From contig CAZOHI010000003.1 of NCBI GenBank assembly GCA_964579695.1, positions 11,384-75,383 of the forward strand: DNA of 64,000 nucleotides, read 5' to 3'. Source of the stretch: an uncultured Caulobacter sp. Its GTDB lineage: Bacteria; Pseudomonadota; Alphaproteobacteria; Caulobacterales; Caulobacteraceae. The notes under the pieces are model-generated. The model worked only from the letters and a program-made list of their open reading frames with translations, made no database searches and was not told the origin of the DNA. A program made the position numbers and the translations under genes. Shown piece by piece: positions 44,606 to 64,000 of the stretch. Each line of letters begins with the position of its first letter. Position 1 is the stretch's first letter.

Positions 44606-45043
44606 CTACGCCTGAGGGAGCACCACAAGGGCATCGAGAAATTCCTTGAGCGACGAAGCAAGGGGGATAATTAAGCGTTCAGGGTCATTATAGTATTCCG
44701 TTTGGAGAAATTGCACTTCTCCAAAAGTATCGGACGAAACGCTGTAAACAAAATAATCGCCATTCGGATCATCGGCGAATGGTATCAAGTCAGGTGAAAG
44801 TATTCCATCTTCCAGGAGCGTTGCATAAGACGCTTCCAGGCCATCTTTCGGACCGACGATCGGAAGAATGTACTGGACCGTATAGAACTCACCATCCTTC
44901 TCAAAGGAGTCAGGCTGGATCGCTCCCCCATTGGCATCAAGATAAAATTTCCGCAAATCTTGCGGAATGGTTAATCCGAGGCGCTGCTCAAGCTGAGCAA
45001 TATCGTGCTCCGTCAATCTGGCCTTCGACCTTCTAATATCCAT
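44606..45043 (-). CDS. SMI1/KNR4-family immunity protein
   Basis: LTEHDIAQLEQRLGLTIPQDLRKFYLDANGG, LIPFADDPNGDYF; 9 nt downstream of the toxin gene; AT-richer DNA. Confidence 0.9.
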   Translation of the reverse strand: MDIRRSKARLTEHDIAQLEQRLGLTIPQDLRKFYLDANGGAIQPDSFEKDGEFYTVQYILPIVGPKDGLEASYATLLEDGILSPDLIPFADDPNGDYFVYSVSSDTFGEVQFLQTEYYNDPERLIIPLASSLKEFLDALVVLPQA

Positions 45044-45052
45044 AGCACTACC

Positions 45053-48000
45053 TCACCTCCTATAACGTGTCCGAGTGAACGCCTCCCACTGAGACACTGC
45101 ACCCGAATGGCCCGACGCCGCTTCGTGCGCACGACGCTGGACAAGCTCCATGGTTGCCGTCCCAGTGCGAGGGTCAAAGTCATCAACATGGTGCCAGCGG
45201 AAATTGTCGCTGATCTCAGGCGTCACCTCAATACCCGCCGCACGGAATGCCGCCGCGTTGTCAGAACGACGGCTGCCCGTTAAGGAGATTTGAACAACGC
45301 TGCTTTGTCCAAGGCCAGCGGCATAGAGATATGGCGTACCAGCAAAGGTGGGGCCTCCATTTGGAGTCGTCCCTACTCCGGGGAAGCCTCTGTCCGCAGC
45401 TCGCTCGGCGGCGCCCAAGCGGCGGAAGCCAATATTACCCCCATTACCTCCCAATCCGTTGATCTGGAGACGGAAGCCGGTGAAAATCTCCAGCCCTCGG
45501 ATCACACTGCCCCCAAGGGCGGCTCCCACCACAAGGGATCCGACGGCGAGGACGCCCGTAGCGCCCCGCCCGGAATCCGCATCTGTGTGGCCCGTGCTGC
45601 TGAACCGATCCTGAGCTGCTTCGGTCAGGCGCCCTATGGCTGGCTCAGTGATAGGCTCAAGCACCTTGCCGATCGCGTACTGCGCCGGCCCGGACGCTAC
45701 GCTGACCGCCTCCAGGCTCCAACGCAGGAGCGGCCGCTCACCAATCTTTTCGGCGACCCAGGTAGCGGTATCGCCCGCGCCCATCATAAACGCGTCGACT
45801 TCGTTCGACAGAAGCGCCGGTTCGACGCCGGTTGAAGCCCGGGAGTTCCTGATGTTCTGATCGAGTACATCGACTGCGGCGTAGGCATCGTCAAACGACA
45901 GTCCGCCTATCTGTTGGAACGCATTTTGAGACGTATAGAGGGCGTACTTGATAGTTCCAGGCTTAGGAGCCGTAACGATAATCCCACCATCCTCCCCCAC
46001 CTCGTCGGGCGGGGAAGGAATGAAGGTTTCGTACCTTTCCACGTCCAAGTATTTACCAAGGGTTTGCTGAGCCTCCTCACTCTTGAGAACGCGCTGCAAC
46101 GCCATCCCTCGCTCGCCATTGTTGGCGTCGAACCGCTTTAGGATGTCGGCCATATCCGCAAGGTCTTCCCGGCTTCGATTTTCATAGGCTGGAAGCTTGG
46201 CGAGCGCATCTATGGTTTGGTTGCGTTGTCTCCGTTCCGATAGGCCCGACACCCCCCTGGCGATGGCGTTCCCGACCGTCGCCGCGATGACGTCCGGCAG
46301 GACGGCCATCATGTTGTCGCCGAAGTCCGAGCCCTCGATCAGGCTGCGCGAGGCCGCTCCTGCCACCCCGCCCGCCAGGTTCGAAATGCCGTCGATGACC
46401 AGCGACTCCAACTGGCTGGGATTGGAGCCGAACATGCCCCCTATCGCACCGCCCACCGCTGATCCGACGCCGCTGACCACCCCGGCCACCGCCACGCTCG
46501 TCCAGTCGAACCGGTCCTGCATCCCAGTAGCCACGCCGATGCCCTGGGTGATGGCGTTGCCGGCCATGCCCCGCATCGCCGCCATGCCCCAGCTGCCCCC
46601 GGCCAGCGGGCCGACGTTGGCCAGCCCCGCCGTGACCCCCGAGCCGATCGCGCCAAGCGCCACCGCGTTCCAGCTGAACTTGTCCTGGATGCCCATCGCC
46701 ATGGCCGCGCCCTGGCTGACGATGCTCCCCACCGCGCCCGCGATCGCCCCGCCCACAAAGGAGCTTACCGCGATCGTTCCCACCGACGCCGCCGTTGCAC
46801 CCGCCGCGACCGTCGCGCCGCCCACGCCGGCGAAGGTCACTCCGGAGAAGCCCAAGGCGCCCGCGCTCACCGAGGCCGTGCCCGCCCCGCCGATCAGGTT
46901 GGCCACGCCCGCGATGGCGTGGGGCGCCACCAGCGCCACCACCACGATGGCGATGATCGCCACGAAGATCTGGGCCACGCCGCAGCCGGCTTCCGCCTTC
47001 GGAGGGGGCGGCATTTTAGGCCTGACGGGGCTGGTGTTGCCGATGGCCCGGTTGGGGTCGTAGGGCCTGAAGGTGTCGGCGTTGTTGTGGATCGGCTCCA
47101 CGTTCGACGGGATCGTCAGCGTCTGGCCCGCCGCCAGCTCGCTGTCGCTCGTCATGCCGTTGGCCTCGGCCAGCGCCCACCACAGCGCCGCGTCCCCCCA
47201 CAGCTGGCTCGCGATCGACTGGAAGGTGTCGCCCTCGCGCACCACGTACCGGCCGCCCGTCTCGGCCTTGGTCGTCGGGCTGTCGTATATCCCGCTGTAC
47301 GCCTGGTCGAAGTCCGCCGTCATGATGGCCGCGCCGCTATAGCGCAGGTCCGCAACCTTCTGGCCATTGAAGTAGAGATAGACGTCCTTGATGGCGTTAT
47401 TCGTCTGCGTCCGACTCAGAACCTGCCCCTGCACGTCAGTCACGTAGTTGATCGTGAAGGGCGACGCGTCGTTGACGTACACCGACGACAGGTGGCCGCT
47501 GGTGTCGTAGCTCATGTTCGACGTGCTTAGAGGGTTCGAGCTGCTCCCCGCATCCGGGTCCAGCGTCTCGATGTCCTTCAATCCCCCGTCCCACCACTCG
47601 TAGGTGTACCAGGTGTCCGAAGTAGGCGCGTTGTACTTCAGCGTACCGTTCGACTGCTCGTAGCGCTTCGTCGTGCGCACGTGCGTAGCAAGCCCGCCCA
47701 GGTTCTGGCCGTTGTAGACCCCCGGGCTCGTCTGCATATTGTAATCGTAGTACTGCTGCGTGACGATGTACTCATTCCCCGTGTTGTATGTACGAGAGTA
47801 CGAGTACGTAACTTCCCCCTTGTTGTTGTACGTATACGAGTAATTGTTGTTGTTACCCATCGGGTTCGCGACCGTCAGAACGCGGCCCAGCGCATCGCGC
47901 GTGTACAAGAGCTTGGTAGAGAGCGTCGTCGGTGGGGGGTCGGTTGAGAAGAAGGTGGCGGAGTTCACCTGCATGACATAGCCGTCGGCGCTGTAGATGT

Positions 48001-63666: not shown

Positions 63667-63750
63667 CGCACGGAGAGAAAACTGCTTCAAATATCGCCCT
63701 GCGATAAAATCGCGCTTGCGCCCGCATCGGGACAGAAGTTAAATCGCGAT

Positions 63751-64000
63751 ATGGGGCGGATTATAGAAATATCAGCAGATATTATTTCGCAAGCGATGCG
63801 AAATGTGGAGATTTCTGCACAGAACATCTCCAATATCTCCACGCCTGGATACAAGCGAAACATTAACTTTGAAAGCCTAGTCGCCAATACTCAATCTGAC
63901 AGCAAGACCTCTACAGCGGATTTTTCCGTCGGAAAACTTATTGACACCAGCAATCCATACGACCTCGCCCTGGGCGGGGACGGCTTCTTCGCCGTGCGCT
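63751..64000 (+). CDS. Flagellar basal-body rod protein (FlgF/FlgG-like), partial
   Basis: My translation: MGRIIEISADIISQAMRNVEISAQNISNISTPGYK…GKLIDTSNPYDLALGGDGFFAVR, carrying the rod/hook N-terminal NxxNxxTPGYK and G.L..T.NP.DLA..GDGFF motifs; open to the window end. Confidence 0.85.
   Translation, partial: MGRIIEISADIISQAMRNVEISAQNISNISTPGYKRNINFESLVANTQSDSKTSTADFSVGKLIDTSNPYDLALGGDGFFAVR

Follow-up and report, generated by a model that had tools for sequence, protein, structure and literature searches.

Is a giant polymorphic toxin gene that lies head-to-head with a set of flagellar export genes part of the same system as those genes and, if so, could the flagellar-type apparatus be the route by which the toxin leaves the cell? 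Rhs toxins travel through type VI secretion systems (T6SS), Tc complexes or, in Gram-positive bacteria, the Sec pathway. The question is posed by a 64,000-nucleotide stretch of DNA from an uncultured Caulobacter sp. (assembly GCA_964579695.1, contig CAZOHI010000003.1, here C3, positions 11384-75383), hereinafter the window, in which the gene for a 4759-amino acid (aa) Rhs/YD toxin and the first gene of a fliQ-fliR-flhB-flhA-rod cluster diverge from a narrow intergenic gap. An initial reading of the window based on the nucleotide sequence and its translations (the sequence-only reading) had proposed a repurposed basal body that exports or displays the toxin. Comparative analysis indicates that the toxin and the apparatus very probably form a single inherited and co-regulated system, and we estimate at roughly 0.6 the probability that this is a dedicated flagellum-derived type III system that exports the toxin as a late substrate. 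Of the original proposal, the identity of the apparatus, its linkage with the toxin and its phylogenetic position have stood; the passage of the toxin through the apparatus, or its mounting on it, is the step that we infer.

The flagellar-type cluster and its toxin

The genome assembly consists of 145 contigs with a total length of 3.49 Mb (completeness 99%, contamination 2.4%), and the continuation of C3 to the right of the window (C3:74000-93999, here L003) carries the cluster for about 16 kb past the window end. Within the window, on the plus strand, the cluster starts after the 192-bp gap (59333-59524) and comprises fliQ (59525..59797; PF01313, E = 1.6e-25) and fliR (59800..60558; PF01311, E = 1.6e-44) of the export gate, flhB for the substrate-switch protein (60555..61646; PF01312, E = 4e-92), an accessory-type flhA (61639..63666; PF00771) whose product is here labeled FlhA2, and the 5' part of the rod gene flgF (63751..64000). 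Past the window, the cluster is a single codirectional block that consists, in this order, of flgF, flgG, flgA, flgH, flgI, flgB, flgC, fliE, fliF, orf132, fliH, fliI, a positional fliJ, a positional fliK, flgD, flgE, a fliM-like gene, fliN, fliO and fliP. Three codirectional genes come 3' of fliP, namely, a FliA/WhiG-family sigma factor gene (L003:14667-15437) and the genes for two tetratricopeptide repeat (TPR) proteins, TPR1 (188 aa; L003:15448-16014) and TPR2 (380 aa; L003:16023-17165). All open reading frames (ORFs) of the cluster are intact. The coordinates that the sequence-only reading had given for the toxin, the immunity gene, the gate and rod genes and the divergent gap all hold by ORF and Pfam analysis, and the genes that it had proposed to seek past 64 kb (fliP, fliF, fliH, fliI, fliN, flgH and flgI) are present, with no FliG, flagellin or MotAB gene in the cluster.

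The export gate encoded in the cluster is complete, with FlhA, FlhB, FliP, FliQ, FliR and also FliO (PF00771, PF01312, PF00813, PF01313, PF01311 and PF04347, respectively), and the axial and ring components that were found are FlgB, FlgC, FlgF, FlgG, FliE, FlgH, FlgI, FlgD and FlgE, the match for FlgB being weak (E = 0.016). FlhA, FlhB and FliI score under the NCBIfam equivalog cut-offs, and the cluster thus represents a divergent lineage: FlhA2 reaches 716 bits on the FlhA model (TIGR01398, cut-off 772), compared to 568 bits on the SctV model, and FlhB, which keeps the NPTH autocleavage motif at aa 271, scores equally on the FlhB and SctU models, under both cut-offs. FliF is short (412 aa), matching only positions 14-232 of the 555-position FliF model, and has hundreds of relatives of about 400-430 aa; in the FliM-like protein, only the FliN-type C-terminal domain is recognizable. 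FlgK, FlgL and FliD are also absent from the cluster, none of its scanned ORFs is of the MotA_ExbB or OmpA (stator) type, and the cluster yielded no gene for a secretin, a needle, a translocon or an SctD/J-type ring. The lack of a rotor, a stator, hook-associated proteins and a filament leads us to interpret the cluster as encoding a putative non-rotating hook-basal body that would span both membranes. The small ORF between fliF and fliH, in the position of FliG (L003:7274-7672), is conserved in relatives (L154:11202-11600, L155:11211-11555 and L156:5517-6137), with product lengths of 114-206 aa; like the positional FliK and FliJ, it has no family match in relaxed Pfam scans, and it may be a reduced adaptor joining the short FliF to the FliM-like/FliN platform.

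Apart from this cluster, the genome encodes a motility set on other contigs, as the sequence-only reading had surmised when it called the cluster an accessory copy. The second of the two FlhA genes, whose product is 39-40% identical to FlhA2, resides on contig C30 next to the only FliG gene of the genome (FliG_C match), contigs C6 and C41 hold all four flagellin genes, and paralogs of rod, ring and gate genes map to C11, C30, C41 and C42. The cluster can be rejected as the motility flagellum itself, or as a copy of it in decay, given its gene content, the separate motility set, the FlhA clade and the same gene content in distant hosts. A second, partial accessory cluster, spanning fliI to TPR2, is found on contig C63 (15,185 bp), with 83.6% nucleotide identity to the copy in the window and protein identities of 74-98% for most genes and 65% for the positional FliK. 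This copy adjoins FecI-, FecR-, TonB-receptor- and PepSY-type genes (by eye) and belongs either to a second island or to a co-assembled related strain, given the 2.4% contamination. Neither a third FlhA nor a second toxin N-terminus was found in the genome.

The toxin gene (45053..59332, minus strand; Pfam and ORF translation) is followed directly 3' by a gene for a 145-aa immunity protein of the SUKH-1/SMI1_KNR4 family (44606..45043, minus strand; PF09346, E = 8.5e-21). The Pfam matches of the toxin comprise DUF6531, 23 RHS repeats, nine Big_9/cadherin-like repeats, LysM and a C-terminal WHH nuclease, and the YD shell, the variable C-terminal toxin and the adjoining immunity gene place it among the Rhs/YD polymorphic toxins. 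From the N-terminus to the C-terminus, a conserved stretch is followed by the YD/Rhs shell with an inserted immunoglobulin (Ig)/cadherin stalk (aa ~426-1260; 55555..58057, minus strand; PF17963 x9, PF17892 x8, PF17803 x8), the LysM domain (aa 4029-4075; 47108..47248, minus strand; PF01476), an FRPYDP block, a proline-rich linker, a hydrophobic glycine-rich region and the WHH nuclease, a member of the HNH/EndoVII superfamily (aa 4709-4751; 45080..45208, minus strand; PF14414, E = 1e-9). The canonical Rhs aspartyl autoprotease motif PxxxxDPxG(x)nDPxG is absent (regular expression search), and the toxin has no features of the two-partner secretion (TPS) or type I secretion system (T1SS) type. The sequence-only reading was also correct in that the toxin carries no PAAR or VgrG-binding module (Pfam and family scans) and no Sec signal (by eye).

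The N-terminal domain of the toxin defines a family of more than 1000 proteins of 3000-7000 aa, mostly annotated as 'YD repeat' or 'LysM domain-containing', in Caulobacter, Brevundimonas, Sphingomonas, Variovorax, Paraburkholderia, Burkholderia, Janthinobacterium, Massilia, Lysobacter and other bacteria. The C-terminal tips vary among the relatives and include WHH, AHH, GH-E, deaminase, colicin DNase and other toxins. By contrast with these variable tips, a block 3' of the shell is found across the family and consists of LysM, TF[RK]PYDP, the proline-rich linker, Cys-Gly and about 200 hydrophobic, glycine-rich residues that precede the variable toxin; the shell end and LysM region are common to 112 of 120 relatives, and 55 of the 120 match the strict motif expression. 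In two Caulobacteraceae genomes, G003 (L043:1-670) and G016 (L045:19478-19903), the Rhs gene ends exactly at the conserved FRPYD / ADFDQAYDP boundary, without the hydrophobic and toxin regions, and fliQ starts ~60-150 bp further on; these shortened genes may represent cargo that has been truncated or scars left by recombination at the point of cassette exchange.

The best-conserved stretch of the entire family starts at Met1 and extends to about residue 35 (MVAIVAGAGLGL...; residues 1-35, 59228..59332, minus strand), with residues 1-32 containing 10 of the 46 invariant columns among the first 300 residues. It is glycine-rich and predicted to be disordered, with AlphaFold2 (AF2) predicted local distance difference test (pLDDT) values of 20-29 for residues 1-30 and beta-strand YD structure modeled from about residue 36, and no other ORF in this genome carries its MVAIV... 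motif. Such a combination of conservation with predicted lack of structure behaves as expected for a linear recognition signal, which falls short of proof, and we regard these residues as a candidate export or recognition signal.

Co-occurrence, synteny and phylogeny

The sequence-only reading had made linkage of this toxin family to clusters of this type a test of its proposal, and such linkage is pronounced. Among 151 Caulobacteraceae genomes, FlhA2 orthologs were detected in seven, from six genera (74-80% identity, compared to ~40% for motility FlhA). The toxin N-terminal domain (first 420 residues, E <= 7e-63) is encoded in eight genomes, namely, all seven with FlhA2 and one of the 144 without it (Fisher's exact p = 2.6e-11, on raw counts that ignore kinship and co-transfer on islands); the single exception holds only TPR2 and a truncated toxin. 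In five of the six other FlhA2-bearing genomes, the toxin adjoins the cluster, and the arrangements differ: it lies downstream of TPR1 in G140, upstream in G071, where TPR1 and TPR2 separate it from the cluster, and divergently from TPR2 in G113, whereas in G003 and G016 the 3' end of the toxin gene abuts fliQ and its 5' end, divergent from TPR2, is on another contig, the gene being split in the assembly. The sixth genome (G146) carries the toxin on a different contig from the cluster, whose own contig breaks off 470 bp beyond fliQ.

Beyond Caulobacteraceae, we examined 80 toxin loci, scanning one genome per species. Cluster or TPR genes are located within 10 kb upstream of the toxin start in 35 of the 80 loci, which represent Alpha-, Beta- and Gammaproteobacteria, with hosts including Caulobacteraceae, Sphingomonadales, Rhizomicrobium, Paraburkholderia, Burkholderia, Caballeronia, Variovorax, Ralstonia, Noviherbaspirillum, Dyella and Stenotrophomonas. 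Among the unlinked loci, several are short contigs. Of 24 genomes in which the toxin locus showed no cluster neighbor, 23 have an FlhA2-type gene elsewhere (51-78% identity, compared to ~40% for motility FlhAs), in some cases just outside the 10-kb flank. The gene order and the absences described above recur in Sphingomonas sanxanigenens, Caulobacter radicis, Flavisphingomonas formosensis and Ralstonia sp. 24A2, and in the annotated neighborhoods examined, no flagellin, FlgK, FlgL or FliD is encoded in the clusters of relatives. Nor is there an alternative exporter conserved beside the toxins in these neighborhoods. Several genomes encode two or three toxin paralogs per cluster. Chance adjacency, or mere residence on the same island, is rejected on the strength of the co-occurrence, the synteny that persists in rearranged form and the shared promoter that is described below.

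The closest relative of the toxin-fliQ arrangement in the window is a contig filed under 'Parcubacteria group bacterium' (L054, JBLNCT010000068.1), with 76% identity over the first 300 aa of the toxin and 78% identity between the FlhA proteins, and another system of this kind (L093) is filed under Pirellula sp.; both are probably mis-binned proteobacterial contigs in metagenome-assembled genomes.

In a maximum likelihood tree of 44 FlhA/SctV-like sequences obtained by frame-aware extraction, with a small outgroup sample, the 23 FlhA2 sequences, which come from three proteobacterial classes, are united in one clade (support 100/100), which is the sister group of the motility FlhAs of the same hosts and is separate from five SctV-like sequences, also from these hosts. 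The position of FlhA2 on the flagellar side of the tree bears out the view, expressed in the sequence-only reading, that the cluster is flagellar rather than injectisome-like in origin. Within the FlhA2 clade, the sequences of Burkholderia, Paraburkholderia and Caballeronia cluster with Xanthomonadales and not with the remaining Burkholderiales, which points to horizontal transfer. Some Caulobacteraceae carry a third FHIPEP gene (G140, C84:105898-106815, as well as G119, G130, G009, G102 and G114), whose product clusters with SctV-like proteins from Lysobacter and Variovorax; the Caulobacteraceae genomes in question probably encode an injectisome-type type III secretion system (T3SS) as well.

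The promoter of the toxin genes

A link that the sequence-only reading did not foresee would connect the toxin genes to the cluster's own FliA-like sigma factor. Alignment of the regions upstream of the toxin genes yielded the motif CTAAAC-N15-C[CG]GAT, which precedes 66 of the 80 toxin genes, 65-234 nt before the start codon and often after an A-rich tract, compared to a mean of 0.46 loci in shuffled sequences. The spacer is 15 nt long in 64 of these loci and 16 nt in the remaining two. The canonical sigma-28 promoter is TAAA-N15-GCCGATAA, and the toxin motif has the same spacing; with TAAA at -35, a -10 element of the CCGAT(AA) type and canonical spacing, it can be classified as a predicted sigma-28-type promoter. 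Across the 80 loci, 62 of the 81 motif matches precede the toxin, and most of the others precede a divergent TPR1 gene in betaproteobacterial loci. Three loci (two from Burkholderiales) have the motif upstream of TPR1 too, and in Variovorax and Ralstonia loci with a divergent TPR1, it is additionally placed, in divergent orientation, just upstream of the toxin.

In the window, the sigma-28 (FliA)-type promoter CTAAAC-N15-CGGAT (59394..59419, minus strand) starts 87 nt upstream of the toxin ATG, and this is the single match to the strict motif in the 3.49-Mb genome. A tblastn search with the sigma factor of the cluster detected no other FliA-like gene in the genome except for the second copy on C63. 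Because the toxin is the only gene in the genome with a matching sigma-28-type promoter, it appears to hold the regulatory slot that belongs to flagellin in a motility flagellum. The cluster encodes no other recognizable late substrate, although the substrate switch is kept, as indicated by the NPTH motif of FlhB and the gene in the position of FliK.

Possible export of the toxin and the alternatives

If the toxin is exported as the dedicated late substrate of this apparatus, the pathway that we infer would begin with completion of the hook-basal body, upon which the sigma factor would turn on the toxin gene and, in betaproteobacterial loci, TPR1 as well. The two TPR proteins could serve as a chaperone and/or a regulator, the chaperone role being suggested by analogy only. 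The conserved, apparently unstructured first ~35 residues of the toxin would target the export gate, and the unfolded chain of ~500 kDa would be threaded through the rod and the hook and emerge at the cell surface, with the YD shell folding there. The Ig/cadherin stalk and LysM would then contact a neighboring cell, the presumed target, the hydrophobic region would carry the variable C-terminal toxin (here, the WHH nuclease) into it, and the SUKH protein would protect siblings.

Several observations weigh against this scenario. To our knowledge, no type III substrate approaches 500 kDa. About half of the toxin loci do not adjoin a cluster, the co-occurrence counts take account of neither phylogeny nor co-transfer on islands, and in motile Beta- and Gammaproteobacteria, the motility FliA might also read the toxin promoter. 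In the positions of FliK and FliJ, the cluster carries genes without a recognizable family. The TPR proteins show no likeness to class II T3SS chaperones of the SycD/IpgC/PcrH type, only to generic TPR: as recognizable T3SS chaperones, TPR1 and TPR2 were rejected after a PDB sequence search and a Foldseek comparison of an AF2 model (pLDDT 91.6) in which the top 50 matches were generic TPR proteins. In agreement with the sequence-only reading, no T6SS, TpsB or T1SS gene was found among the ten largest genes of 287-24357 or the ten ORFs scanned in 35812-44179 and just past the right end of the cluster, a scope that leaves room for another route elsewhere in the genome. Finally, the proteins reported to depend on the related apparatus of Lysobacter (see below) are different and small, only bands of 15-40 kDa having been examined (PMC7688988; PMC9927559).

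The alternative that survives best, albeit an unlikely one in our assessment, is purely regulatory coupling, whereby the hook-basal body would be an assembly or contact checkpoint acting on the FliA-like sigma factor, in the manner of FlgM export in motility flagella, and the toxin would leave the cell by another route (an unrecognized exporter, vesicles or lysis) or act from the surface of the producer after a different translocation. Such a scheme would draw on the best-supported connection, that between the promoter and the sigma factor, would be compatible with the lack of a chaperone-type match for TPR1 and TPR2, and would not demand passage of a protein far bigger than any type III substrate known to us. 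However, retention of the full rod, the L and P rings and the hook would be costly for a checkpoint alone, no FlgM-like gene was recognized, and a separate exit is hard to reconcile with toxins that carry no PAAR, TPS- or T1SS-type features and no Sec signal detectable by eye, beside which no other exporter is conserved. In Lysobacter, the flagellar type III genes reportedly also affect twitching motility, an indication of regulatory side effects that would fit the checkpoint scheme (PMC7277350).

Display rather than release is a variant of the export scenario and, as a specific claim, appears improbable. By analogy with Rhs proteins on the T6SS spike, the toxin could be the distal part at the hook tip, that is, a contact-dependent adhesin and toxin spike that replaces the hook-associated proteins and the filament. 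With FlgK, FlgL, FliD and flagellin missing, nothing else is encoded in the cluster to sit on the hook, the long Ig/cadherin stalk and LysM would suit an adhesin, and the invariant N-terminus suggests a fixed docking partner. Yet this N-terminus, being glycine-rich and predicted to be disordered, does not resemble the coiled-coil termini by which flagellar axial proteins are generally known to join, and the presence of two or three toxin paralogs per cluster in several genomes is more in line with exchangeable cargo than with a fixed structural element.

The genomic setting bears on the last alternative. Between ~5700 and ~80150 (counted past the window end), the G+C content of third codon positions (GC3) falls from about 0.93 to 0.75-0.89. 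The left edge of this region of ~75 kb coincides with a tRNA-Thr gene (5496..5571, plus strand), next to which lies a P4-type integrase (5496-7097 region), and 13 nt of the tRNA 3' end are repeated at C3:91848-91860, where the lower GC3 ends, the match being weak on its own (E = 0.14). A tyrosine integrase (41300..42931, minus strand; PF00589, PF13356) and an integrase fragment (43608..44078, plus strand) lie further inside, the latter just left of the toxin/immunity pair. The content of the region includes an insertion sequence (IS) element, defense-type genes (GmrSD, a QueC-like protein, PIN/TPR proteins) and a TonB receptor with FecR and an extracytoplasmic function (ECF) sigma factor, followed by the toxin and the cluster. 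The segment 10505-24357 presents a defense-island context, with an IS3-type transposase (rve), a TPR protein and, after it, a 1296-aa protein with an HTH-upstream-of-double-PIN domain, a GmrSD-type restriction enzyme, a DUF2971 protein and the QueC-like protein. The region looks like a composite genomic island that combines defense and iron-uptake genes with the toxin and the cluster; the system is island-borne here, which fits its patchy distribution.

This location next to a tRNA gene, with two integrases and an integrase fragment, together with an integrase that also flanks the Flavisphingomonas cluster and with the patchy occurrence in Caulobacteraceae, is what a pair of functionally unrelated passengers on a common integrative element, or a decaying second flagellum, would predict, but we consider this possibility very remote given that it failed the co-occurrence, synteny and promoter tests, that the link survives rearrangement across three classes at protein identities down to 40-60%, that distant toxins still co-occur with the cluster (23 of 24 genomes) and keep the promoter, that the cluster ORFs are intact, with content and order unchanged in distant hosts, that FlhA2 is monophyletic, and that the Lysobacter system is reported to be expressed and active (PMC7688988).

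Full-text searches and inspection of the polymorphic toxin survey of Zhang et al. 2012 revealed no link between Rhs toxins and flagellar-type clusters. [quoted passage not shown] According to the parts of the papers that were available, this bacterium keeps flhA, flhB, fliP, fliQ, fliR, fliI, fliF, fliN, flgC, flgG, flgH, flgI, flgD and flgE and to have no fliG, fliM, motAB, fliC, flgK, flgL or fliD by BLAST with Xanthomonas queries, and in strain OH11, the FT3SS is expressed, exports FlgD and is needed for yeast killing (Fulano et al. 2020, PMC7688988; PMC9927559). The gene complement is reduced in the same way as the one described here; FlhA of L. enzymogenes Lj46 is 61% identical to that encoded in the window and belongs to the 100/100 FlhA2 clade, and Lj46 encodes two toxins of this Rhs family, preceded by the promoter. 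The papers interpret the FT3SS as a remnant of flagellar loss in a non-flagellated genus (PMC7688988; PMC7277350; PMC9927559) and do not consider giant Rhs toxins as cargo; a dedicated sigma factor, the promoter and the TPR genes are not mentioned in the parts consulted. In contrast, the system in the window is a second, island-borne one in a flagellated Caulobacteraceae genome, with relatives in three proteobacterial classes.

Motility flagella, too, provide a conduit for toxins and effectors through a flagellar-type gate, rod and hook, antibacterial nucleases included, as exemplified by the carocin S1/S3 nuclease bacteriocins of Pectobacterium (PMC8672553) and the Cia/Fed proteins of Campylobacter (PMC9856085). 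However, those are cases of moonlighting by a rotating, filament-bearing organelle with small cargo, whereas the apparatus described here has no rotor, stator or filament, its genes lie apart from the motility set, and it co-occurs with a single giant toxin family. With the injectisome (Sct), the proposed machine would share dedicated, non-rotating delivery of effectors, a substrate switch, derivation from the flagellum and, should TPR1 and TPR2 play such roles, TPR chaperones that double as regulators; it differs in having a rod, L and P rings and a hook, with none of the injectisome-specific genes listed above found in the cluster, and in its presumed cargo, an Rhs polymorphic toxin with an immunity gene, suggestive of bacterial targets. 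The PAAR-Rhs proteins of T6SS (Jurenas et al. 2021, PMC8636562) and the TcB/TcC cocoons of Tc toxins have in common with the present toxin a YD shell around a variable C-terminal toxin, a cognate immunity gene and an N-terminus that sets the secretion route. Unlike them, the toxin analyzed here has no PAAR or VgrG-binding domain, no TcA partner and no PxxxxDPxG motif; compared to the T6SS Rhs proteins, it shows the conserved 35-residue N-terminus as well as LysM, the FRPYDP block and the hydrophobic region 3' of the shell, and it is three to four times longer than is typical of them. As in the class 3 (sigma-28/FliA) tier of flagellar genes, a FliA-family sigma factor is encoded with hook-basal-body genes and a promoter of canonical geometry (TAAA-N16-CCGAT) precedes the presumed late substrate; here, however, a toxin rather than flagellin occupies the late slot, and no FlgM-like anti-sigma factor was recognized.

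Taken together, these comparisons incline us, on balance, to the broader view that, in addition to the motility flagellum and the injectisome, type III machines could comprise a third functional class, a hook-basal body that neither rotates nor bears a filament. Its dedicated late substrates would be giant (3000-7000 aa) Rhs-LysM toxins, recognized by the conserved 35-residue N-terminus and activated by the sigma-28-type factor encoded in the system itself, and the system would have spread horizontally among Alpha-, Beta- and Gammaproteobacteria of soil and water. In Lysobacter, the 'vestigial' flagellar genes would then be this weapon rather than a remnant. The size of the toxins raises the question whether a chain of 500 kDa could traverse a type III channel, and the sigma factor, the promoter, the candidate N-terminal signal, the putative TPR partners and the presumed cargo are now defined for direct tests, for which non-pathogenic hosts amenable to genetics exist. 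The 'incomplete' flagellar clusters of Lysobacter, Variovorax, Burkholderia, Paraburkholderia, Ralstonia, Sphingomonas and Caulobacter, which are currently annotated as ordinary flagellar genes or as remnants, would acquire a new interpretation. If this view is correct, a secretion weapon would have arisen from the flagellum separately from the injectisome, with implications for the evolution of type III systems, and the flagellum-derived route would be a new mode of delivery for one of the largest families of polymorphic toxins, with more than 1000 members found.

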